A stretch of DNA of 64,000 nucleotides from Brumimicrobium sp. Its GTDB lineage: Bacteria; Bacteroidota; Bacteroidia; Flavobacteriales_D; Crocinitomicaceae. The DNA lies in contig JAWVYS010000005.1 in the NCBI GenBank assembly GCA_033722555.1, forward strand, positions 30,724 to 94,723, written 5' to 3'. A program made the position numbers and the translations under genes. Under the pieces are notes generated by a model. The model was given only the letters and a program-made list of their open reading frames with translations. It did no database searches and was not told the DNA's origin. Shown piece by piece: positions 6,734 to 41,859 of the stretch. Every line of letters starts with the position of its first letter. Within the stretch, counting starts at the first letter, position 1.

Positions 6734-8593
6734 ATGAAAAAGATTTATTTAAGTTTAGCTTTATCCGGAATTGTTCTGGGTAGTTCGGCGCAGCAACTTC
6801 AGAAAGTAAGCCATTTGAGGGCTGCCGATGTGGAACCAGGAACTGCTGAAGGTTCTTTCAAAGGGGATGTGTATTATCAGTTTGAAAAAGCTTCAGGAGA
6901 CAGTATTTTTTACGAAGATTTTGCTTCAGGAATAACCGGTTGGACCACCGGAGGCGCTCAGGATATATGGGCGTACGACACAGATGGGCCAAACGGTCAG
7001 TTTTCGACAGGAGCTACTCCTTTACAGTCTACAACAGCCGCGAACGGCTTTATAATTTATGATGCTGATGGGAATCAGACCCCATCTCCAGCAGGTGGGT
7101 TTTTTAATCACGTTGGATTTATTAGCTCTCCTGTAATTGATTTTACAGGTTTTACAAATTTAACACTGGCATTCCAACATACATATCGTACTTGCTGTGC
7201 ACAAGGTTTCTTTCCTAAGGTGCTAATATCTGATGATGGTTTTAGTACTTTCACAGAGCTTAACGCAGGAATTTCTGGTGCGGCGGTGAATACTCAAACG
7301 CCTACCACAATTACGAAACTGGATTTGTCAACTTTTATTGCTGGATCAACTGCTCTAAATAATGTTCAAATACGATTTCTTTTTGATGGTAGTGCAGGAA
7401 CGTCTCACTACTTTTGGAGTGTAGATGATATTGCTGTTATTGAGTCGTTAGAGAATGACCTAAAAATAAACAAACGATTTTTAGCTTCTGGAACTCAAAA
7501 GATTCCTTATCACTATGTACCGACTTCTCAGTTAGTTGACGTTGAATTATCAGGTAAAATTAGCAATATTGGTTTAAATACTCAAAACAACGTTCAACTT
7601 GAAGTTCTCGTTGATGACGGTACAACTCAGAGTACACTTAATTCTTTAACCGGAACTTCGTTAGCACCTGGCGTAACGGATTCTTTGGTTACTTCCACAA
7701 ACTGGATGCCTTCAGGCGCTGCAGGTACAACTTTTAATATGTTCTTCAGTGCTGTTCAGACTGAAACTGAACAGGAAGGTTCAGATAATTTAATTACTGA
7801 AACCTTTAATATCACTGATAGTGTTTATAGTGTGGATAATGGAATTTTACAAAGTAGTATAAGCAATTTCTCTGGCAATGCCAATCAGGCGTTTAAAATT
7901 GGAAACCAGATGGAAGTCATGTCAACAGGTGATATTACTTCTGTGTCGGTATACGTTGCCAACAGAGCAGCTTCAGCAGGACAAGAAATTTTCGCTGAAA
8001 TCTATGTTTTTGACGGAACAGATTTCGTTTATGCTGCCGATGCTCCTTTCTATGTTTTGACGAATGCTGACTTAGGTACCTTTGTAACATTGCCTTTAAG
8101 CACAATGTTGCCGGTGGCTGCTGGAGATATAATCTTGGTTATGGCAGGTCATCAGGGATCAGGAGATCCTAACGTTGCGGATGTTCGTTTTGGTCAAGCT
8201 CAAAAAGTTGATCAAGGCATTGTGGTAGGTGCTGCGGCGGATGGAGTATTAGCAAATCTAATAGATCCTAATGCTGTAATGGTTCGCGTTAACATGCCGG
8301 CTGATGCTTCCGTTTCTCAAAACGAATTTGACAACCTTAAAGTAAGCCAGAACTTCCCGAACCCATTCTCAAACCAGACTGTTATTCAGTACACTTTGGA
8401 GAATGCGAGTGAGGTTAATTACAGCTTGGTTGATCTAACCGGAAAAGTAGTATTGGAAGTGAACGAAGGAAACGTTAATGCTGGTGGACATTCTATCAAA
8501 ATTGACGGGTCTACACTTTCTAACGGTGTATATTACTTCAATATGACTGCCGGAGATACTAAAGTAACTCGCAAACTGGTAGTTAATAAATAA
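6734..8593 (+). CDS. T9SS type A sorting-domain secreted protein (619 aa)
   Basis: Signal peptide; C-terminal SQNFPNPFSNQTVIQY...LSNGVYYFNM...TRKLVVNK is a type A CTD. Confidence 0.9.
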   Translation: MKKIYLSLALSGIVLGSSAQQLQKVSHLRAADVEPGTAEGSFKGDVYYQFEKASGDSIFYEDFASGITGWTTGGAQDIWAYDTDGPNGQFSTGATPLQSTTAANGFIIYDADGNQTPSPAGGFFNHVGFISSPVIDFTGFTNLTLAFQHTYRTCCAQGFFPKVLISDDGFSTFTELNAGISGAAVNTQTPTTITKLDLSTFIAGSTALNNVQIRFLFDGSAGTSHYFWSVDDIAVIESLENDLKINKRFLASGTQKIPYHYVPTSQLVDVELSGKISNIGLNTQNNVQLEVLVDDGTTQSTLNSLTGTSLAPGVTDSLVTSTNWMPSGAAGTTFNMFFSAVQTETEQEGSDNLITETFNITDSVYSVDNGILQSSISNFSGNANQAFKIGNQMEVMSTGDITSVSVYVANRAASAGQEIFAEIYVFDGTDFVYAADAPFYVLTNADLGTFVTLPLSTMLPVAAGDIILVMAGHQGSGDPNVADVRFGQAQKVDQGIVVGAAADGVLANLIDPNAVMVRVNMPADASVSQNEFDNLKVSQNFPNPFSNQTVIQYTLENASEVNYSLVDLTGKVVLEVNEGNVNAGGHSIKIDGSTLSNGVYYFNMTAGDTKVTRKLVVNK

Positions 8594-8613
8594 AAATTGC
8601 TTTACGCAAATTG

Positions 8614-8640
8614 AAGGGAGGCCTTGGGTCTCCCTTTTTT
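8614..8640 (+). terminator. Intrinsic terminator
   Basis: AAGGGAGGCC-TTG-GGTCTCCCTT stem followed by a T tract, 20 nt after the stop. Confidence 0.85.
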
Positions 8641-8702
8641 ATGCTTTAACAAATCTTAAGACTTTATATAAAACAAAATGGGTTTTATGCAGTTATAAGG
8701 GT

Positions 8703-8766
8703 GTTAGGTTTCATAAGTAGTAGTGTTAGTTAAAAAGGAGAGGACGCCCGTTCTCTCCTTTTTTTT
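8703..8766 (+). ncRNA. Putative small RNA, copy 1 of 3
   Basis: Invariant GTTAGGTTTCATAAGTAGTAGTGTTA (8703-8728), then AAAAAGGAGAGGAC-GCCC-GTTCTCTCCTTTTT hairpin and T tract. Confidence 0.6.
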
Positions 8767-8859
8767 GGGACTTGTTTTTGTGGCACTGGATTTTTTTAAC
8801 AATTATTCTGTTTCTGTATGCAACATTTTGAAGATTTCTCGGTTTAGGGATGTATAGTA

Positions 8860-8917
8860 GTTAGGTTTCATAAGTAGTAGTGTTAGCAAAGGAGAAAACG
8901 CCCCTTTTCTCTTTTGT
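8860..8917 (+). ncRNA. Putative small RNA, copy 2 of 3
   Basis: Same 26-mer (8860-8885), then GCAAAGGAGAAAA-CGCCCC-TTTTCTCTTTTGT hairpin. Confidence 0.6.
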
Positions 8918-8999
8918 GCTTTTAGGCACCAGTTTTATTCGATCTTTCCGAATTAACTTTTCTTATGAGAAAGAAATAAAAAATAGGAATAGTTCTTGA

Positions 9000-9007
9000 T
9001 ATATTTG
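9000..9007 (+). promoter_or_regulatory. -7 element TATATTTG directly upstream of sRNA copy 3
   Basis: TAnnTTTG match ending 4 nt before the 26-mer, which places the expected start site at the repeat's 5' end. Confidence 0.65.
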
Positions 9008-9011
9008 CATC

Positions 9012-9078
9012 GTTAGGTTTCATAAGTAGTAGTGTTAAGTCAGGGGAGGGAACGCCAGTTTTCTCCCCTGACTGTTTT
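9012..9078 (+). ncRNA. Putative small RNA, copy 3 of 3
   Basis: Same 26-mer (9012-9037), then 16-bp AGTCAGGGGAGGGAAC-GCCA-GTTTTCTCCCCTGACT hairpin abutting the convergent GT9 stop. Confidence 0.65.
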
Positions 9079-10063
9079 AAGGGACGTAGTTATTAATAGC
9101 CTTTTTTATTGCTTCCACATCTTGATCCACCATGCATTTGAAATGTTTTTTTGGACATTTTTGGAATCCGATCTTGGAACAAGGCCGGCAGGAAAGCCCT
9201 TTAACTTCGTGAATCGAATAATTCCCTTTGTTTCCCGGCTTATAAGGATACATGCCGAACTCGGGAACTGTATTCCCCCATACACTAACAATAGGGGTGT
9301 CAAAGGCTGACGCTATGTGCATCAAACCTGTGTCATGTGTTAAAAGAACCTTCGCTTGCCTAACAACGGATGCAGACTGATTTAAGTTCAGCTTACCACA
9401 CATGTTGAAAAAGGTTGTGTTTTCTGCCCTATTAATTATTTCCTCACCAATTTCTTGATCTTCCGCACCACCAAGTAAAACTACGGGAAGTATCGAACCT
9501 GACAATATGGAAGATAATTTTTCGCTCGGAAGTCTCTTGGTCGCGAATTGTGCTCCCAATGCAACTGCAATTATTTTGTCGGTTTGAAAATTTTCTATCA
9601 GGTTTATCTGATCATTTTCAGGGATAAAATAATCCAGGCCTTGCTGATCATTCTTTACCCCGAGGTTTTTGACTGCTTCAAAATATCTGTCAACAATGTG
9701 CACGTCCGGTAGGAGATTCCATTTAAAATTGACGTATGTCCATTTTTCAACATTGAGTTTTGGAAATGAATAACTCTTTGACTTTAGATGATTTTTGATT
9801 TTTGCCGTACGAATATTTTTATGGAGATCAATGACATAGTCAAAGTTTTCATTTTTCAGATTCTCGATCACCTCTTTATTCTCCTTACCCCATGTATGAA
9901 TTTTATCTACGTGCGGATTGGAATTAAACAGAATCGCATACTGATACTTTGTCAGAACATGCAGTTCCACACTGTTTAGCTGTGTTTTAATTCCACGTAA
10001 AACAGGACTCGTAAGCACGATGTCGCCGATGGAACTAAAGCGTATGACAAGAATTTTGGTCAT
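9077..10063 (-). CDS. Glycosyltransferase family 9 (heptosyltransferase-like)
   Basis: MTKILVIRFSSIGDIVLT start motif, THDTGLMHIASAF, CRPCSKIG...C. Start moved from the track's 10135 to 10063, where TAATTTTG lies 5 nt upstream. Confidence 0.92.
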   Translation of the reverse strand: MTKILVIRFSSIGDIVLTSPVLRGIKTQLNSVELHVLTKYQYAILFNSNPHVDKIHTWGKENKEVIENLKNENFDYVIDLHKNIRTAKIKNHLKSKSYSFPKLNVEKWTYVNFKWNLLPDVHIVDRYFEAVKNLGVKNDQQGLDYFIPENDQINLIENFQTDKIIAVALGAQFATKRLPSEKLSSILSGSILPVVLLGGAEDQEIGEEIINRAENTTFFNMCGKLNLNQSASVVRQAKVLLTHDTGLMHIASAFDTPIVSVWGNTVPEFGMYPYKPGNKGNYSIHEVKGLSCRPCSKIGFQKCPKKHFKCMVDQDVEAIKKAINNYVP

Positions 10064-10157
10064 TCCTACAAAATTAGCACAAATCGGCAATTTAATAACC
10101 TCACAACGGAGGCAAAAAAGTTCCCGAATTTGCACGAAATATCTGTACCTTTGTTCT

Positions 10158-12386: not shown

Positions 12387-15300
12387 TTACCACACCCTGT
12401 AATCCATTTCTTTATTATGCATGCGGGACGTAGGGACCTGATTACCGTTTGATAACTTTTTTACTTCTTCGATGACATACTCCTGAAGTTCTGATACTGT
12501 TATGGTTTTATCGTTGTTTAAATCAGCTTTTCGGCTTTTTAAAGCATGGATAAGACTATATGTAAAAAGTCCATTTTCATATTTAGAACTTTCAAATGCC
12601 AGCTCAGTCCCTCCCGAACTTGAAATTACTGTGGCGCCCGTTCCTCTGCGCAGGTCGAGGAAAACTTGCTTCATCAAATAATTAATATTCTTGAATCCCA
12701 GTGGATCATCTTTGAAACTTATACCGGCTCCTACGTTTCTAAATCTCCATTCTTCCGTAGAATCAATAGTGATATGTTCGTTTTTCTCAACCTCCTCCTT
12801 ATCGATTTCTCCTGAATGACAGGTGTCCAGGATCAATAATTTCTTCAGAGCTTTGATGCCATCAATAAGTTCTTCAATTTTTTTATAAGGAATCCCTCGT
12901 TTCGAAGGATCATCAAAGTCGATGTCGTGGCTGGCAAAATAATAATCGAAATTTTCATCCAATATCCCGTGTCCTGCAACAAAAATCAAAACAAAATCAT
13001 CAACGTCGGCCTGAGCGAGAAATTCGGTTAATTCTTCCAGGTTTTCAAGATTTACTTCTTTGTCTGTAAGGGATTTGGTATAAACTGAACCGAAAAAATC
13101 ACTTTCATTGAAGAGTTTTTCCATATCTGCTGCATCTTTAGCTGCGTAAGCAAGATTGAATCGTTTATCGGCATACTTGCTTACTCCGATAGTAACCACA
13201 TAAGCATTCGGTTTTTTCTTTCCTTCTTTACAATAAACGTTTATAACTTCTTTGAAGCTCTCAGCTCCGGACTGATTGAGGGTGCTCACTTCGATTTTAT
13301 TGTCCCCGTAACTCAAATTCAACGGAACCGTTACGGTAAGTTCTGCTGTATCCAGAGACCTTATATTATGACCCAATGAACCCAGAACTGCTACTTCATT
13401 TATCCAGACCTTATAACTTTCCAGCTTGTGTTTCGAGTCACTGAGACTTAGTTCAAGTTCAAGCTTTTTACTCGCTGTTTCACCGGGTATTTTTTCTTTG
13501 TTCAGGATTTGTACTTCAGGTAAATGGAAATCACTCGATAAAGCCTTCTCTGTGAGATTTAGTTTTTTAAGGCGCTTTTCATACGCACGTTCGTAAGCGG
13601 TGATGAGATCTTTGTTCATATATCCGAGTTTTTCGAGAACAAGGTCGGGTCGGTTGTATTTAAGGTCAAATTGATCAGGATAGAAAAATTGCCCTTGATA
13701 ACGAAAACCGATTTCATCGATAGCGCCCTTGGAGATGAGGTAATAATTGTCGGCAGTGATAATTACGACCTCATTGTTTTGAAAAGGAATAATAGAGGCG
13801 ATTAGTTCCTTTTTCGAAAAATCCCAAAGTTTCACTGTACCGTCATCACTGGAACTGATGAAAACGTTTTTGGAGGGGTGAAAACTGATATCCGTAACCC
13901 GATCCGAATGCCCGGTAAAAGAAGCCTCTACGGTGTAAGTCTCGGCATTCAGAAAAACAATTCGATGTTCATGATCACTTAAAATGATCAGGTTTCTATC
14001 GAAAAAAAGTGAATGCGCATTTATTTCAGAAACCTGCAGGTACTTTTTCTGATCAATTTTGTAAATGAACTGCCCGCGTTCACGGCTGCTAAGCCAGAGT
14101 GTATTTGGGTTGAGAACTCTAAAGTCATTCAACATAAAAGGTAGAGAGTCTTTACGAAAGAAATAATCTCCGTTCTCCTTTCTCCAAAAATAAAGTGTTC
14201 CTGAGTTTTCGAGTAAGCTTACGAACTGGTCTTTTTCGGTAAATCGGGCATCTTTCCAATTGCGATTATCTTCATAAGCATACAAATGCTTTACTTCTTG
14301 TCTTTCAGGATAGGCCAGTGTAATGTTAGGGATATCTGTTTTACCTGTTAGCAGAACAGCTTTATTATCCAGGGAAATATCGCAGGTCAAAACTTCGCCA
14401 ATGGGTTCCTGATATAATCCGAACAGATTTTGTAGCAAAAGGCCTTTCGACCTTGTGAGCTCATGCTCTCTGAATTTAACCGTTTCCGCTGCTGAAAATG
14501 AACTCAGATCTTTCTTTATTTCGAGGGAATTATTTGAATTAGAAACGTAATAAGCCTGATCTCCTTTAAAACTGGACTTCTTTATGTTATTGATAGATTG
14601 AGGATAATTCGTTACGCGCGTGTTCGGGAAAAGAGCATTGAAATCTACAGAATATAAATTTCCAAGTTCGTCGCCTATATGAATTTCATTTCCATTGTGA
14701 CTGAAAACAGCAGTATTCTTTCTGAATATGTTTGAATACAACCTGAATTTAACCCGGTAATTCTTAGCGTCCCAGATAATTATGCTGCGGTCTTTGCCGG
14801 CGGTAGCAAAGAATTTACCGTCCGGAGAAAAACGAACATCCCTGGCGGGGGAATTATGTTCCTGCATAATCACAATTTTCTTACCTCTTTGGTAAGTATA
14901 GCAGTATATTGCATTGTTTTCTGCAACTCCTACGATGAGATCATTTTCTTTGGAAACATCGAAGGCATAAAAAGAGGCATTTGTGTAGGTTACCGAAATC
15001 CAGTATCTGGCAAAAAACCTGTCCTTTTTTTCTTTCTTGATCGCACCTTTTTTAATGAAGGTTTTATGCAATCCGTCAGGGTCATTAAAAGTGTCCTTTT
15101 TACGGAACAGGGTGTCGCCGTCAAAGGGCCTTGTTTCAAGTGCGTCTGAACTGATCTCAAATAAATAGGTGCTCTTCTTGCTTTGGATTTTTACTTTTTC
15201 ATCATTTTCGATGAATTTAATACCGATTATTTCATCGCTTTCGGGAAGTTTAAATCGCGTAAGTGCTTTTCTGAAATTGAGGTCCCAGATTATACCTTCA

Positions 15301-15458
15301 TTGTTAAGGCTCCAGCTGATAATGTAATTACCATTTTCCGAAAATTCGATCCTGTCAATGGCAGAAGAATGGCCTTTTTGTGGTGCCAATTCTACCTGTT
15401 GAGCAACGGAACTCATCGAAAGAAGGAAGGTCAGAAACTGAAACAGGTATTTATTCAT
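12387..15458 (-). CDS. Secreted WD40-repeat protein with C-terminal caspase-like (C14) peptidase domain
   Basis: Signal peptide MNKYLFQF... (start 15458 overlaps the upstream stop, ATGAATAA); GH...WD repeats; catalytic FVAGHG and ILDTCHSG; SSSGGTELAFE...NGLFT. Confidence 0.9.
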   Translation of the reverse strand: MNKYLFQFLTFLLSMSSVAQQVELAPQKGHSSAIDRIEFSENGNYIISWSLNNEGIIWDLNFRKALTRFKLPESDEIIGIKFIENDEKVKIQSKKSTYLFEISSDALETRPFDGDTLFRKKDTFNDPDGLHKTFIKKGAIKKEKKDRFFARYWISVTYTNASFYAFDVSKENDLIVGVAENNAIYCYTYQRGKKIVIMQEHNSPARDVRFSPDGKFFATAGKDRSIIIWDAKNYRVKFRLYSNIFRKNTAVFSHNGNEIHIGDELGNLYSVDFNALFPNTRVTNYPQSINNIKKSSFKGDQAYYVSNSNNSLEIKKDLSSFSAAETVKFREHELTRSKGLLLQNLFGLYQEPIGEVLTCDISLDNKAVLLTGKTDIPNITLAYPERQEVKHLYAYEDNRNWKDARFTEKDQFVSLLENSGTLYFWRKENGDYFFRKDSLPFMLNDFRVLNPNTLWLSSRERGQFIYKIDQKKYLQVSEINAHSLFFDRNLIILSDHEHRIVFLNAETYTVEASFTGHSDRVTDISFHPSKNVFISSSDDGTVKLWDFSKKELIASIIPFQNNEVVIITADNYYLISKGAIDEIGFRYQGQFFYPDQFDLKYNRPDLVLEKLGYMNKDLITAYERAYEKRLKKLNLTEKALSSDFHLPEVQILNKEKIPGETASKKLELELSLSDSKHKLESYKVWINEVAVLGSLGHNIRSLDTAELTVTVPLNLSYGDNKIEVSTLNQSGAESFKEVINVYCKEGKKKPNAYVVTIGVSKYADKRFNLAYAAKDAADMEKLFNESDFFGSVYTKSLTDKEVNLENLEELTEFLAQADVDDFVLIFVAGHGILDENFDYYFASHDIDFDDPSKRGIPYKKIEELIDGIKALKKLLILDTCHSGEIDKEEVEKNEHITIDSTEEWRFRNVGAGISFKDDPLGFKNINYLMKQVFLDLRRGTGATVISSSGGTELAFESSKYENGLFTYSLIHALKSRKADLNNDKTITVSELQEYVIEEVKKLSNGNQVPTSRMHNKEMDYRVW

Positions 15459-16197
15459 GGTATACATCATGTTTTTTTCTGAGATCACTTAGTCCGAGCA
15501 GGTCATAACTCACGTGAAGTTCTATCTGAGCAATATCTGCACGTATTCTGAGTTTACTGAGTCTGGTTCGTGACATAAAACGCATGGATACCTGAACCTT
15601 TCCAAAACTTTTTCCGACACCAAAGAAATTTTGTCGGTAAAAACCTTCGTTGTAAAGAATGTTTTTAAAATGACCGTCCCCGTGATCTGTCCCACCCTTG
15701 TATATCGGGCCGTCAGAAAAGAGATACGGTGCGCCGGCATGCTGGAAATCGAAATTTTTCCCGTAGGTCAACACGGTCCCTACACTTAAAAACATACTGT
15801 TATTCTTTTTGAAGAGTTGATAAGAGTAAAATATGGGCAGTCGGAAGGCCTTCATTCCAACTACTCTTTCGGAATAGGATTCCCCTTGAAACCTGAAAAC
15901 AGATCGCCGCATGAAGTATTGCGGTTCCAGACTGAGGGTAGATTTTCTGAAATTGTAGCAGATCATAGTACCCAGGGAATAACCGTTAAATATGTGAGAC
16001 CTGTTGATGACACCCTGACCCTCGACATTTTCGTAATAGGTGAAATCAGCATTTTCAGGCGTATAAACGGAATCCAAAAATTTGGTAGACTGCAGAATTT
16101 GAACGGCACCCGAAACTTTCAATCTGAGATCCTGATTTTGCGCATTTCCTGAAAGATAAAACAACAGGAAAAGAATGATTGCACTTGTGTTTTTCAT
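15451..16197 (-). CDS. Putative outer-membrane beta-barrel protein
   Basis: Signal peptide, alternating amphipathic beta pattern, translationally coupled to both neighbours. Confidence 0.65.
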   Translation of the reverse strand: MKNTSAIILFLLFYLSGNAQNQDLRLKVSGAVQILQSTKFLDSVYTPENADFTYYENVEGQGVINRSHIFNGYSLGTMICYNFRKSTLSLEPQYFMRRSVFRFQGESYSERVVGMKAFRLPIFYSYQLFKKNNSMFLSVGTVLTYGKNFDFQHAGAPYLFSDGPIYKGGTDHGDGHFKNILYNEGFYRQNFFGVGKSFGKVQVSMRFMSRTRLSKLRIRADIAQIELHVSYDLLGLSDLRKKHDVYHE

Positions 16198-27070: not shown

Positions 27071-28870
27071 ATGAAGAACATACGCAACTTTTGCATCATA
27101 GCTCATATCGATCATGGTAAGAGCACTTTAGCCGACCGATTACTTCAGACTACAGGAACAATATCCGACCGTGACATGAAGGAACAGGCGTTGGACGATA
27201 TGGATCTCGAGCGTGAACGTGGCATCACAATTAAGAGTCATGCTATACAGATGGATTACCAGCATGACGGAGTTGATTACACACTTAACCTGATCGATAC
27301 GCCGGGACACGTTGATTTTTCATATGAGGTGTCCAGATCTATTGCCGCATGCGAAGGCGCATTGTTGATTGTGGATGCCTCTCAGGGGATTGAAGCACAA
27401 ACCATTTCTAATTTATATTTAGCGCTTGAACACGATCTGGAAATTATTCCGATTTTGAATAAAATGGATTTGCCGGGTGCTCAACCTGAGGAGGTAACGG
27501 ACCAGATTGTTGACCTGATTGGTTGTGACCCCTCAGATGTAATTCCCGCCTCAGGGAAAACCGGTCTTGGTGTGGATAAAATTTTAGATGCGATTATCAA
27601 AAGAATTCCGCCGCCCAAAGGTGATCCGGATGCCCCGCTTCAGGCAATGATCTTTGATTCGGTATTCAATCCTTTTCGGGGTATTATCGCTTATTACAGA
27701 ATACTGAACGGTAGCATAAAGAAAGGTCAGCGGGTGAAGTTTGTGAATACAGGCAGAAGCTACGATGCGGATGAAGTTGGTATTTTAAAGATGACTCCTC
27801 AACCCAAAAATGAGGTCAAGACAGGAGACGTAGGGTATATCATTTCAGGAATTAAGATAGCCAAAGAAGTAAAGGTGGGTGAAACGATCACTTCTTTTGA
27901 GAATCCTTGCAAAGAAGCGGTTAAAGGATTTGAGGACGTTAAACCCATGGTTTTCTCCGGAATTTATCCGGTAGATACGGATGATTTCGAGGAGCTAAGG
28001 TTTTCTATGGAAAAACTGCAATTGAATGATTCATCGCTAGTCTACGAACCGGAATCTTCAGCTGCTTTAGGTTTTGGCTTCCGATGTGGCTTTTTGGGAA
28101 TGCTTCATCTCGAGATAATCCAGGAAAGACTGGAACGGGAATTCGACATGACTGTGATTACGACGGTTCCAAACGTGTCTTATTACTGTTATATGCGTAA
28201 AAATCCGGAAGAGAGAATCATCGTAAATAACCCTTCGGAATTACCAGATCCTGCGGCTGTTGAATATATTGAAGAACCTTATATCAAGGCGCAAGTGATT
28301 ACCAAATCGGAATATATCGGACAGATAATGACTCTGTGCATCGAAAAACGCGGTGAACTGCAAAATCAGGTTTATCTCACTCAGGACAGGGTAGAGATCA
28401 CTTTCCTGATGCCCATGGCCGAGATTGTTTTTGACTTTTATGATCGTTTGAAATCGGTGTCAAGAGGATATGCTTCTTTCGACTATTTCCCTATCGGATA
28501 CCAGAAATCAGACCTTGTGAAACTTGATGTACTGCTGAATCATGAGCAGGTAGATGCGCTTTCTGCATTAGTGCACCGAAGCAATGCCTTCGATCTCGGA
28601 AAGAAAATCTGCTTGAAGTTGAAAGAATTAATTCCAAGGCAACAGTTTGAGATTCCTATACAGGCTGCGATTGGTGCCAAGGTTATCGCCCGGGAAACGA
28701 TTAAGGCCCTCAGAAAAGATGTAACCGCCAAATGTTACGGTGGAGATATTTCAAGAAAACGAAAACTCCTGGAGAAACAAAAGCAGGGAAAGAAAAGAAT
28801 GCGCCAGGTAGGAAGGGTGGAGGTACCACAGGAAGCATTCCTTGCAGTTCTGAAACTGAACGACAGTTGA
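27071..28870 (+). CDS. lepA: Translation elongation factor 4
   Basis: [46 protein letters not shown]. Confidence 0.99.
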
Positions 28871-38149: not shown

Positions 38150-39154
38150 ATGCAAATGAAAAGAAACATAAGAGAAATTATTAAAGAAAGAATATTGGTC
38201 CTCGATGGTGCCATGGGAACCATGATTCAGCGCCATAAGCTGGAAGAGGAAGATTTTCGAAAAGGTTGGTTTGAAAATCATACTCAGCCTTTGAAGGGAA
38301 ACAATGATTTGCTTTCTTTGACAAGACCCGATATTATAAAAGATATTCATCGGGAATATTTTGAGGCCGGTGCAGATATCGCTGAGACAAATACCTTTTC
38401 AGGGACGACGATAGCGCAAGCGGATTACGGTTTGGAACATGCCGTTTATGATATCAACTATCAATCTGCAAAAATTGCCCGGGAGGTGGCTGATGAATTT
38501 ACCGATCGTGAGCCCGACAAACCAAGATATGTTGCAGGATCCATCGGACCTACAAACAGAACCGCTTCAATCTCTCCGGATGTAAATGATCCCGGCTATA
38601 GAGCAATTACTTTTGACGAGCTGGTAGAAGCCTATTCACAGCAGGTAAAAGCACTCATTGAAGGTGGTGTAGATTTATTATTGGTGGAGACGGTTTTTGA
38701 TACACTGAATGCCAAGGCTGCGCTATATGCCATTGATGTTGTCCAGGAAGAAATGAACACTGACCTGCCTGTAATGGTTTCAGGAACAATCACTGATGCG
38801 TCGGGAAGAACCCTCACCGGACAGACTACAGAGTCTTTCCTCATCTCGGTTTCTCACATGCCTCTTTTTAGTATTGGTTTAAATTGTGCCCTCGGAGCAA
38901 GAGAACTTCGGCAGTATCTGAAAATATTGCATGAAAAGGCGCCATTCTTCATTTCGGCACATCCAAATGCCGGTTTGCCAAATGAATTTGGAGAATACGA
39001 TGAAACTCCTGAAATAATGGGTAAACAGATTGAAGAGTTTTTAGAAGAAGGATTAGTAAATATCATAGGTGGTTGCTGCGGAACAACACCCGAGCACATC
39101 AAGGTGATTGCAGATTTGGCTAAAAAGTATGAGGTGAGGGAGGTTGAATCCTAA
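38150..39154 (+). CDS. metH: Methionine synthase, homocysteine-binding N-terminal module
   Basis: [33 protein letters not shown]. Confidence 0.95.
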
Positions 39155-39171
39155 TAAAAAACATTAAACAA

Positions 39172-41859
39172 ATGACCCAAAATAAAACATACCCCCCTTT
39201 AAAACTTTCAGGTCTTGAGCCTTTGATCGTTACACCTGAATCCAATTTTGTCAACGTCGGTGAGCGAACGAACGTAACAGGTTCTGCAAAATTCCTGCGT
39301 CTCATAAAGGAAGACAATTACGAAGAGGCATTGGAAGTGGCGCTTGAGCAGGTACAGGGTGGCGCACAGATTATAGACGTCAATATGGACGAGGGAATGA
39401 TCGACGGTAAAGAAGCCATGGTAAAATTCCTCAATCTCATTGCCTCCGAACCTGATATCGCACGTGTTCCGGTCATGATTGATTCTTCGAAATGGGAGAT
39501 TATTGAAGCCGGACTGAAATGCATTCAGGGAAAGGGAGTGGTGAATTCCATTTCGCTCAAAGAAGGAGAAGAACAGTTCATTGCTCAGGCCAAAAAAATA
39601 AAGCGTTATGGGGCAGCCGTAATTGTAATGGCTTTCGACGAGCAAGGACAAGCCGATAGTTATGAGCGCAGAATTGAGATCTGTAAACGTTCTTATGATA
39701 TTCTCGTGAATAAAGTGAAATTCCCTCCGCAAGATATCATTTTTGATCCCAATATTTTTCCGGTTGCCACAGGTATGGAGGAACACAGGAACAATGCTGT
39801 AGATTTTTTCAGAGCTACACGTTGGATTCGTGAAAATCTTCCGGGCGCACATGTTTCCGGGGGTGTTTCCAATGTTTCCTTTTCTTTTCGAGGAAATAAT
39901 CCGGTAAGGGAAGCCATGCATTCGGCTTTTCTTTATCATGCTATTCAGGAAGGAATGGACATGGGAATTGTAAACCCTTCCATGCTGGAGGTATATGACG
40001 ACATAGACAAAGAACTGCTGGAATTTGTGGAAGATGTTCTTCTGAATCGCCGGGATGATGCTACGGAGCGATTACTGGAATATGCAGAGAATTTCAAGGG
40101 AGAGGGTAAAAAACGTGAAATTGATCTGTCTTGGAGAGAGCAGCCGGTGAATGAGAGACTGGCGCATGCGCTGGTGAAAGGAATTGTTGAATTCATCGAA
40201 GAAGATACCGAAGAATGCCGTTTGCAATACGAGCGACCTATTGAAGTAATAGAAGGGCCTTTGATGGATGGAATGAACATCGTTGGAGACTTGTTCGGAA
40301 GCGGTAAAATGTTCCTTCCGCAGGTGGTGAAATCAGCCAGGGTGATGAAGAAAGCCGTAGCCTATCTTTTGCCCTATATCGAAGCAGATAAGCGGGAAGG
40401 AGATAAGCCTAACGGCAAGATTCTGATGGCTACTGTTAAGGGAGATGTCCACGATATAGGGAAGAACATTGTTGGTGTAGTCCTGGGATGTAACAACTAT
40501 CATGTGATCGACATGGGCGTAATGGTTCCTGCAGAAAAAATCATTGCTAAAGCCATGGAAGAAGGTGTAGATGTGATCGGATTGAGCGGACTCATAACAC
40601 CCTCGCTGGATGAAATGGTGAACATGGCAAAGGAAATGCAACGAGCGAATCTAAACATACCCTTACTCATTGGCGGAGCGACTACCTCTCGCGTACATAC
40701 TGCGGTAAAGATCGAAGAGCACTATAAAAATAATCAGACCGTTCACGTGCTGGATGCTTCTCGTTCGGTAACGGTTGTTGAGAGTCTGCTCGGCGGTAAA
40801 AGGGATGAATTTGTAAAAAGCATCAGGGAGGATTATGAGAAATTGAGAGAGCATCATTCCCGTAGTAGGGGAAACAAAACTTATCTGAGTTTGTCTGAAG
40901 CACGTCGCAATAAATTCAGCATCGACTGGAGCGAAAAGGATATTTATACTCCCCGACATGTGGGCCGGAGAACTTTTGTTAACTACGATCTCAATGAATT
41001 GGTGGATTATATAGACTGGACACCTTTTTTCCAGACATGGGAATTGGCCGGCCGCTATCCCGATATTCTGCAAGATGAGGTGGTAGGCGAATCTGCGACC
41101 AAACTTTATGAAGACGCCAGAAACATGCTGGACAAGATTGTTTCCGAAAAATGGCTGGAGGCCAGGGCTGTAATAGGCTTGTTTCCTGCCAACACGGTAA
41201 ACTACGACGATATCGAGATCTACACGGACGAGACGCGTTCACAGGTTCTGTCCGTACAGCACACGATGCGTCAACAACTCAAGAAATCTGATAAGGCGGA
41301 TAATCTTGCGCTTTCAGATTTTATTGCTCCGAAAGAATCAGGACTAAAAGATTATGTCGGAGGATTTGTTGTAACAACCGGTCTGGGTATAGAAAAACAC
41401 ATTGCACGTTTCGAGGCAGACCATGATGATTACAATTCGATCATGTTAAAAGCACTGGCAGACAGGCTTGCCGAGGCATTTGCCGAACGCATGCACGAGC
41501 GTGTAAGAAAAGAATTCTGGGGATATGCTTCGGATGAGAAGTTTGATAACGATTCACTTATCAAAGAAAAATACCAGGGAATTCGTCCCGCACCGGGCTA
41601 TCCTGCTTGTCCTGACCATACGGAAAAACCTGATTTGTTCAAGATTTTGAATGCTTCTGAGATAACAGGTGTACAATTGACAGAGAGCATGGCGATGACA
41701 CCTGCGGCAAGCGTGAGCGGCTGGTACTTTGCTCATCCTGCGTCGAAATACTTTGGGGTTGGGAAGATTGCCAAGGATCAGGTAGAAAGTCTTGCTGAAC
41801 GAAAAGGGTTCTCCTTTGAGGAAATGGAAAAATGGTTAGGGCCTAATTTGGGGTATTGA
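39172..41859 (+). CDS. metH: Methionine synthase, pterin/cobalamin-binding and reactivation modules
   Basis: [39 protein letters not shown]. Confidence 0.96.

Follow-up and report, generated by a model that had tools for sequence, protein, structure and literature searches.

In a 64-kb stretch of Brumimicrobium sp. DNA (contig JAWVYS010000005.1, positions 30,724 to 94,723; hereafter the window, in whose coordinates positions are given), we find a tandem array that probably represents three independently transcribed small regulatory RNA (sRNA) genes of about 65-75 nt each. The array occupies the gap between two convergent genes, 6734-8593 (+) and 9077-10135 (-). Judged from the DNA, it is very likely that all three copies are expressed sRNA genes. 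An earlier reading of this region (the original prediction) had proposed a functional RNA family rather than a passive repeat, and this view holds: each copy has its own promoter-like elements and a hairpin followed by a T-run, the 5' part is predicted to be unpaired, and the stem of the hairpin covaries.

The defining feature of the array is a 26-mer, GTTAGGTTTCATAAGTAGTAGTGTTA, that matches exactly at 8703-8728, 8860-8885 and 9012-9037, always on the + strand. The starts and the copy-to-copy spacing of 157 and 152 nt agree with those originally reported, as does the quoted reverse complement of this seed. Beyond these three matches, the 26-mer has none at up to three mismatches on either strand of the whole window, and its chance expectation is 0 (0 in 100 dinucleotide shuffles). 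The DNA between the copies has diverged, as had been noted, such that there is almost no alignment between copies outside the 26-mer and the hairpin. Because a Logan contig from a tidal-flat metagenome run, one of the DNA metagenomes found in our run search, shows zero differences over 8400-9300, the array does not stem from mis-assembly of the window. The upstream gene has a terminator of its own, which makes copy 1 a separate transcription unit, and with no gene downstream of the array there is no control in cis; we therefore rejected a cis-regulatory leader. At the other end, the T-run of copy 3 overlaps the stop codon (9077-9079) of the convergent family-9 glycosyltransferase (GT9) gene. 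The copy 2 RNA may be up to ~85 nt long if its end lies after a second small hairpin at 8916-8929. The sequence (A)GG(G/C)AC comes after the T-run of every copy in this genome alone (8767-8771, 8924-8929, 9080-9085); other genomes do not conserve it, and local gene conversion may be its source.

Behind the seed, each copy folds into the 13-16 bp hairpin described in the original prediction. Single-sequence folds give 13 bp and -19.5 kcal/mol (z = -3.7) for copy 1, 13 bp and -14.1 kcal/mol (z = -1.8) for copy 2, and 16 bp and -29.0 kcal/mol (z = -6.2) for copy 3, with loops GCCC, CGCCCC and GCCA, respectively, and a T-run after each hairpin. The stems differ among the three copies yet pairing is maintained. 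To quantify this, we aligned 40 copies (alignment A2) with the hairpin specified as columns 31-45 paired with columns 50-64. In this alignment 97.7% of hairpin cells are paired and 13 of the 15 pairs show compensatory changes on both sides, values reached by none of 500 shuffles; when the partner is slid by 1-3 columns as a control, only 53-63% are paired. RNAalifold predicts the terminator hairpin as the sole helix and leaves columns 1-31 unpaired, and within this unpaired region the 5' 24-26 nt are nearly invariant. At each position of the loop and its closing pair, C-GCCC-G, 34-39 of the 40 copies agree, in contrast to the freely varying stem beneath. A GC-containing stem-loop stands directly before a U-run on the transcribed strand, and in most copies of the family T-runs lie 3' of the hairpins on the + strand only. 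A simple terminator scan flagged none of the three sRNA hairpins, because the A/T-run of copy 1 extends the stem and so uses up the tail, and because copy 3 has only four T's. The co-varying hairpin of the original prediction is thus conserved, but it is a GC-clamped intrinsic (Rho-independent) terminator; the covariation proves a conserved hairpin and not a special regulatory fold. Two Lishizhenia copies carry an unrelated hairpin behind the same seed, and therefore the seed is the part under the strongest constraint.

The array belongs to a family found in related genomes. The 22-mer GGTTTCATAAGTAGTAGTGTTA matches exactly in 23 loci of a species-representative genome collection, all of them from Crocinitomicaceae or unclassified Flavobacteriales. 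Carriers are Brumimicrobium glaciale, B. mesophilum, B. oceani, B. aurantiacum, B. salinarum and Lishizhenia tianjinensis, together with metagenome-assembled genomes (MAGs) labelled Brumimicrobium, Lishizhenia or Fluviicola. Tandem groups of 2-4 copies are frequent, with at most 4 exact copies in any one locus. The original prediction had suggested a covariance-model search of related genomes; our model (R1) finds 53 full-length copies at 44 bits or more in the window and related loci, 1-5 per locus, and in the window only the three known copies. Thirteen model-found copies were missed by the exact word and differ mostly at positions 25-26 (GUGUGA or GUGUAA), whereas single changes at positions 3, 5, 6 and 15 are rare and belong to the most divergent copies; GUUAGGUUUCAUAAGUAGUAGUGU is thus the core that is in effect invariant.

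Because these loci were fetched by an exact 22-mer match, their apparent invariance is inflated; covariance-model matches inside the loci and a synteny-anchored sample (three informative loci only) are a partial control for this bias. The array lies in a conserved gene order of metG, an S9 peptidase gene, the gene for a protein with a type IX secretion system (T9SS) sorting domain, and then the array. The T9SS protein adjoining the array is only 25-56% identical between genomes in which the RNA 5' region is identical. With the S9 peptidase as a seed-independent anchor in metagenome contigs, we find the RNAs on each of the 3 new syntenic contigs spanning the region (L120, L122 and L123; peptidase identity at least 54%), and only on contigs that keep the metG/peptidase/T9SS synteny. 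This sample adds one new single-base seed variant, GTTAGGCTTCAT. Where peptidase identity is 50% or lower, both the synteny and the RNAs are absent, also when the model's filters are switched off, and the family is therefore confined to one Crocinitomicaceae clade. The 20-mer is absent from the IMG/VR viral contigs, and a phage origin was rejected.

Upstream of the RNAs, promoter classes can be distinguished. The consensus of 29 aligned upstream regions comprises TTTAACAT at about -60, AACA at about -31 and G-TTATA at about -11. All 17 matches to TTTAACATnTnTT in 237 kb (both strands) lie upstream of sRNA copies, as do 8 of the 9 matches to AACA-N15-17-[CG]GTTATA. A TTAAC box is present ~55-65 nt upstream of 44 of the 53 copies, whatever the promoter type; in its full form, TTTAACA, it is specific to this family and may be an activator site, an UP-like element or an upstream or second promoter. 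The motif AAC-N-GTTW, and not TAnnTTTG, is found in 36 of the 53 copies, starting at -31 to -33 in 23 of them (type T1) and at -37 to -44 in the remaining 13 (type T2). In T2 copies the resulting 5' extension usually reads AAGUAGUA, that is, the motif is duplicated before GTTAGG. Eight of the 53 copies instead have GG-N8-TTG starting at -26/-27, where 0.24 are expected (type T3), and several T3 orthologues read TGGCAC-N5-TTGC, the sigma-54 consensus. A few copies (L009, L003) have the Bacteroidota sigma-A motif TAnnTTTG. Window copies 1, 2 and 3 are of types T1, T2 and T3, respectively.

Promoters for extracytoplasmic function (ECF) sigma factors have AAC and CGT elements, as in the Bacillus subtilis SigW consensus TGAAAC-N16-CGTA, and sigma-54 promoters have GG at -24 and GC at -12. 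By consensus resemblance, copies 1 and 2 have an ECF-sigma-like AAC...(C)GT arrangement and not TAnnTTTG; the T1/T2 sequence AACA-N16-(C)GTTATA is close to the SigW consensus, a likeness that is one of resemblance only. Copy 3 reads aGGaat-N5-TTGA directly before TATATTTG, a match to the Bacteroidota sigma-A -7 motif that, as the original prediction noted, ends 4 nt before the copy (9000-9007); copy 3 may be driven by sigma-54, sigma-A or both. The elements of copy 2 lie ~7 nt further from the 26-mer than those of copy 1, placing its predicted start near 8852-8856. Since three unrelated promoter types end 4-13 nt before GTTAGG, we infer that transcription begins at the conserved block and place the RNA 5' end there. 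The AAC...N17...GTT promoter (8672-8698, and the T1/T2 copies in L001-L023) is also near-palindromic, with boxes at about -31 and -11. This fits the verbal description of the gibS promoter PM2 of B. thetaiotaomicron, which is near-palindromic and non-canonical with -10 and -30 boxes, the likeness being one of description and not of sequence (PMC7366714). In the Lishizhenia copies with the unrelated hairpin (L016 5282-5460 (-), L017 7087-7265 (+)), the hairpin lacks the CGCCCG loop, and the box and an ECF-like GAAACC-N16-CGTTAT are ~60 nt further upstream; the shift and the unrelated hairpin together predict a longer RNA of ~120 nt in which the seed is internal.

The promoter types are maintained across lineages. 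The order T1-T2-T3 is common to the window and to L023, L012, L008, L019 and L011. When the window array is footprinted pairwise against L023, conservation is limited to the box, the -35-like and -10-like elements and the RNA bodies, and each window copy is closer to its positional orthologue than to its neighbours. Copy 3 and its L023 orthologue have the GCCA loop in common and show compensatory C:G to U:A changes in the stem. Based on the conserved order and the likeness of orthologues, the triplication predates the divergence of these lineages. The original prediction of redundant paralogous sRNAs is therefore correct as to paralogy, but simple redundancy is probably not the explanation, given that each paralog keeps its own promoter type across genera. 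The features of the array and its flanks are collected in Table 1.

Table 1. Features of the sRNA array and flanking genes, in window coordinates. Scores are from the covariance model.
Feature	Position	Strand	Details
Upstream gene	6734-8593	+	619-aa protein, T9SS C-terminal sorting domain (Pfam Por_Secre_tail)
Intrinsic terminator of the upstream T9SS gene	8613-8637	+	found by terminator scan; outside the sRNAs
Copy 1 upstream box	8645-8651	+	TTTAACA; about -58 to -52; conserved in L023
Copy 1 promoter-like elements	8672-8698	+	AACA 8672-8675 (about -31), 16 nt, GTTATAA 8692-8698 (about -11)
Putative sRNA copy 1 (type T1)	8703-8766	+	~64 nt; 78.9 bits; seed 8703-8728; terminator stem 8733-8745/8750-8762; loop GCCC; T-run 8759-8766
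Copy 2 upstream box	8795-8801	+	TTTAACA; 27 nt to AACA element, same as copy 1
Copy 2 promoter-like elements	8822-8848	+	AACA 8822-8825, 16 nt, GTTTAGG 8842-8848; AAC-N-GTTW at -38
Putative sRNA copy 2 (type T2)	8853-8923	+	~70 nt; 72.4 bits; 5' extension UAUAGUA; seed 8860-8885; stem 8886-8898/8905-8917; loop CGCCCC; then U-rich tail
Copy 3 upstream box	8953-8957	+	TTAAC (degenerate); at -59
Copy 3 promoter region	8986-9007	+	GG 8986-8987, N8, TTGA 8996-8999, then TATATTTG 9000-9007
Putative sRNA copy 3 (type T3)	9012-9078	+	~67 nt; 88.2 bits; seed 9012-9037; 16-bp stem 9038-9053/9058-9073; loop GCCA; short T-run 9075-9078
Convergent downstream gene	9077-10135	-	family-9 glycosyltransferase (Pfam)

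We compared the array with known RNA families by scanning the whole window against Rfam at the gathering threshold, and the region together with six related loci at a permissive setting (E<=10). No Rfam family reaches threshold for the array, and Flavo-1 and Bacteroidales-1, which the original prediction had named as families to check, are absent even at E<=10. Permissive matches to MicX, BTnc231 and the L20 leader were rejected as terminator-driven noise. The only architecture-matched Rfam match is FopS (RF04319, BTncRNA_FopS), whose model aligns end-to-end to copy 1 with 22.6 bits (E = 1.4), below its gathering threshold of 56 bits, and we treated this weak match as no more than a lead; copies 2 and 3 and all copies in the six related loci are without a FopS report at E<=10. 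FopS comprises 14 paralogous RNAs of ~65-70 nt in B. thetaiotaomicron, each with a single-stranded 5' seed and a terminator, and its mechanism is experimentally established: the seed pairs by the start codons of susC mRNAs and represses their translation, and the RNAs are bound in their 5' part and antagonised by RbpB, a protein with an RNA recognition motif (RRM) (PMC11697453). A further sRNA, GibS, has part of the FopS seed (PMC7366714). In the reciprocal search, we took real FopS genes from IMG/VR contigs (675 kb) and searched them with the array model. FopS genes account for at least 11 of the 17 weak matches, each aligned in full register and in the correct orientation, at scores of only 10-19 bits. 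Between the 26-mer and the FopS consensus, the core TTTCAT-AGTAnTAGnnTTA is 16/20 identical (shuffle p ~0.017); the array seed may thus share part of the FopS R1/R1' seed (GUGUUUUUCAUAGUAUUAGAU).

The array RNAs resemble FopS and GibS in their phylum, their length of ~65-70 nt and their presence as several paralogs per genome, here three in the window and 1-5 per related locus. As in FopS, an unstructured conserved 5' region with UUUCAU (anti-AUGAAA) and a GUAnUAG stretch is followed by a single Rho-independent terminator hairpin, an anatomy that the established start-codon pairing at susC mRNAs fits. The two groups differ in the seed outside the core, in their hosts (Flavobacteriia/Crocinitomicaceae from marine or saline sediment versus gut bacteria), in gene arrangement (one syntenic tandem array versus dispersed genes) and in the conserved CGCCCG terminator loop, which FopS lacks. 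They also differ in their promoters, which are mostly ECF-like or sigma-54-like in the array family whereas FopS uses the canonical sigma-ABfr motif TAnnTTTG at -7 (PMC11697453). The real FopS genes we examined show TAnnTTTG, and in the window only copy 3 has TATATTTG. No susC gene is among the window open reading frames (ORFs) scanned. Based on this comparison, the array RNAs most likely work like FopS while scoring outside the FopS family, and the anti-AUGAAA seed is no less likely to have arisen by convergence than by distant homology. The family is absent from Rfam 15 and from the literature searched, which has no description of such a family in Flavobacteriia. The novelty that was originally expected thus stands with respect to Rfam, but is qualified by a close described analogue, the Bacteroides FopS/GibS RNAs (RF04319; PMC11697453).

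Two observations on the FopS-bearing contigs are separate from this comparison. The FopS-type sequence TTTTTCATNGTATTAGATTTAAGG occurs in 96 viral-labelled IMG/VR contigs (L024-L119), most copies having a TAnnTTTG promoter and a few lying directly 3' of a tRNA end (L028, L030, L108), a pattern that hints at carriage of FopS-like RNAs by integrative elements or prophages, or at insertion of such elements next to them. In addition, the best match of the array model in these contigs (26.7 bits; L055 11176-11249 (-)) is not a FopS gene; it consists of AUAAGGUUUUAGGAUUAAUAGUGUUUG, a hairpin and a U-run, and could represent one more sRNA of this broad kind.

From these features we infer a base-pairing mechanism and a class of targets. 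Each RNA would start at or a few nt before the unstructured invariant GUUAGGUUUCAUAAGUAGUAGUGU(UA) and would end in the GC-clamped hairpin with its conserved C-GCCC-G top, acting as a Rho-independent terminator. The free 5' end is predicted to pair across the start codon of target mRNAs, UUUCAU against AUGAAA, with the GUAGUAGUG stretch pairing just upstream of the start codon. Pairing could extend 10-12 nt upstream of the start codon (AAGUAGUAGUG against CACUACUACUU), and the predicted target sites are CACUACUACUUAUGAAA-like and overlap start codons. Such pairing would block ribosome loading or initiation in a phylum that uses unstructured A-rich initiation regions and no Shine-Dalgarno pairing. 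We favor start-codon occlusion, with moderate confidence, as the mode of action of these RNAs. Because the paralogs have the same seed and different promoters, the array probably feeds several signals into one regulon; ECF-like promoters (envelope or other stress) and sigma-54 with its enhancer-binding proteins could converge on it. The second AAGUAGUA motif of the T2 isoform could alter affinity for targets or for a protein, and the conserved CGCCCG loop is a possible second contact site, as in Listeria LhrC. A more specific version is a three-input cassette, in which one seed is placed under an ECF-type sigma factor, under the same promoter as a 5'-extended, AAGUAGUA-duplicated isoform, and under sigma-54, all with the TTTAACA box and with the CGCCCG loop as a possible second site. 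We consider this version possible but doubtful.

A number of observations weigh against this interpretation. The best seed duplexes at 176 ORF starts in the window and related loci are no better than those of shuffled seeds, and the best window-wide duplexes (21037, 59431) are not at gene starts; this target sample is less than 10% of one genome, and the negative result therefore carries little weight. The run searches, made with the window and one related locus, returned DNA metagenomes only and no RNA run. The sigma factor assignments are drawn from resemblance to consensus sequences only, and window copy 3 has GA at -12 in place of the canonical GC. At 24-26 nt, the invariant stretch is longer than a usual seed and could reflect protein binding or several overlapping functions. 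No RRM-type protein was found by its RNP1 motif in the available DNA, which is a small part of any genome.

The length of the invariant stretch also bears on the idea that the RNAs are decoys, which would titrate away a protein that binds RNA (one of the RRM type, such as RbpB, for instance) through the GUAGUAGU repeat, the CGCCCG loop or both, with no pairing to mRNA. The duplication of AAGUAGUA at the 5' end of T2 copies, the retention of C-GCCC-G over a variable stem and the binding of RbpB to the 5' part of FopS RNAs (PMC11697453) are in line with such a role, which we nevertheless judge to be quite unlikely. Each RNA has one or two copies of the motif, in contrast to the many found in sponges of the CsrB/RsmZ type, and a pairing model predicts just such an invariant anti-start-codon core as UUUCAU. 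That no RRM gene was seen in the available DNA is weak evidence in the same direction. In FopS, the one studied analogue, RbpB binding modulates pairing and does not replace it (PMC11697453). It is also unlikely that the family is a very diverged true branch of FopS/GibS, by which the known family would extend to another Bacteroidota class. Such a branch would account for the full-length alignment of the FopS model to copy 1, for the concentration of weak array-model matches on FopS genes, for the similarity of the core, and for the shared length, architecture, multicopy habit and phylum. However, scores in both directions are far under the thresholds, the other window copies and the six other loci give no FopS match, and the FopS matches are near-identical and therefore not independent. 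An anti-AUGAAA core followed by a terminator can arise by convergence, the promoters differ from the canonical TAnnTTTG of FopS, and FopS is reported as conserved within Bacteroidaceae (PMC11697453).

It is highly improbable that the array is a passive repeat without a function at the RNA level, be it an element like a repetitive extragenic palindrome (REP) or a miniature inverted-repeat transposable element (MITE), a stack of terminators that insulates convergent genes, or a short minus-strand ORF from ATGAAACCTAAC. The hairpins do lie between convergent genes, the minus-strand gene has its stop codon right beside copy 3, and the minus strand reads ATG AAA CCT AAC. Against this, the copies have no terminal inverted repeat, are low in number, are absent from viral contigs, and combine family-specific promoter elements at fixed distances with T-runs that, in most copies, lie behind the hairpins on the + strand alone. 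The genome-wide scatter that the original prediction had raised as a sign of a REP/MITE-like element is not seen: the 64-kb window has 3 copies, which share a single intergenic region, and other loci have 1-5 each; given these counts, the total of 23 loci in the whole collection and the promoters of the copies, we rejected this class of element. The minus-strand ORF was rejected because it extends into the variable promoter, ending in copy 1 after 9 codons, and because all 26 nt, including every third position, are invariant, which is not a coding pattern. On the plus strand, two of the three frames of the 26-mer contain stops and the third has no start codon, and an ORF was rejected there as well. 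A resemblance of UUUCAUAA to tRNA was also rejected, as ARAGORN finds no tRNA-like gene.

Sibling sRNAs with comparable features occur elsewhere. Qrr1-5 of Vibrio are multiple paralogs with a long invariant stretch, their sigma-54-type -24/-12 promoter resembles that of T3, and their multiplicity serves dosage or signal integration. In the array family, by contrast, sigma-54-like GG-N8-TTG is limited to the T3 class (8 of 53 copies and one of the three window paralogs); Qrr RNAs fold into several stem-loops and require Hfq, a protein missing from Bacteroidota. They show no sequence similarity to the array RNAs, and the permissive Rfam scan gave no Qrr match at E<=10. LhrC1-5 of Listeria monocytogenes, OmrA/B and PrrF1/2 are likewise sibling genes in tandem, and every gene has a promoter and a terminator to itself. 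In LhrC, C-rich loop motifs, including that of the terminator loop, are functional pairing sites and provide a precedent for the conserved GCCC loop, although the sequences and phyla are unrelated and the UCCC seeds of LhrC target Shine-Dalgarno sequences, which are not used by Bacteroidota. The enterobacterial sigma-E-dependent RNAs MicA, RybB and MicL resemble T1/T2 in having an ECF-type promoter (AAC at -35, short -10) and a 5'-terminal seed; unlike them, the array RNAs have no Hfq partner, and there is no sequence similarity.

The gene neighborhoods of the family are housekeeping or diverse (metG, S9 peptidase, T9SS protein, GT9, FBPase, lepA, ileS, purB) and therefore give no functional hint. 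In two Fluviicola-labelled MAGs (L009 3679-3750 (-), L010 548-620 (+)), a single co-oriented sRNA copy lies upstream of lepA, at a distance of 110 nt in L009 and 275 nt in L010; lepA in the window (27071-28870) has no such copy. In three Brumimicrobium loci, the most divergent, T2-like copy is adjoined by a 112-114-aa ORF: L013 (1357-1701 (-)), L020 (3261-3605 (+)) and L015 (3056-3394 (+)). The L013 ORF, the only one of this class scanned, has no Pfam match, and its start gives the best seed duplex, at -17.9 kcal/mol, which is not significant. Unrelated to the array, the only Rfam match at threshold in the window is a SAM riboswitch (RF00162, 37865-37977 (+), 83.3 bits), which precedes an ORF (38150-39154) and a B12-dependent methionine synthase gene (39172-41859). 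A second SAM riboswitch (L013 1856-1973) lies near the B. glaciale sRNA cluster. The window also encodes, at 12387-15488 (-), a 1033-aa protein with WD40 beta-propellers and a C-terminal caspase (Peptidase_C14) domain.

To our knowledge, post-transcriptional control is poorly known in Bacteroidota, a phylum without Hfq and ProQ, and FopS/GibS in gut Bacteroides are almost the sole worked example of trans-acting sRNAs in it. Bacteroidota also largely ignore Shine-Dalgarno pairing. If our interpretation is true, a second family of FopS architecture in environmental Flavobacteriia would show that this principle reaches beyond the gut. The distinctive features of the family are its conserved three-gene array, its perfectly conserved anti-AUGAAA 5' end and its paralog-specific promoters. 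With at least 6 cultured genomes carrying it and a covariance model ready for their annotation, it offers a clean comparative system for asking how sRNAs can stop initiation in the absence of a Shine-Dalgarno site, what proteins help them and what maintains sibling sRNAs. Should the three-input cassette prove true, it would be the first multi-sigma sRNA "OR gate" in Bacteroidota and, together with FopS/GibS, would point to an ancient, phylum-wide class of anti-start-codon sRNAs suited to Shine-Dalgarno-independent translation.

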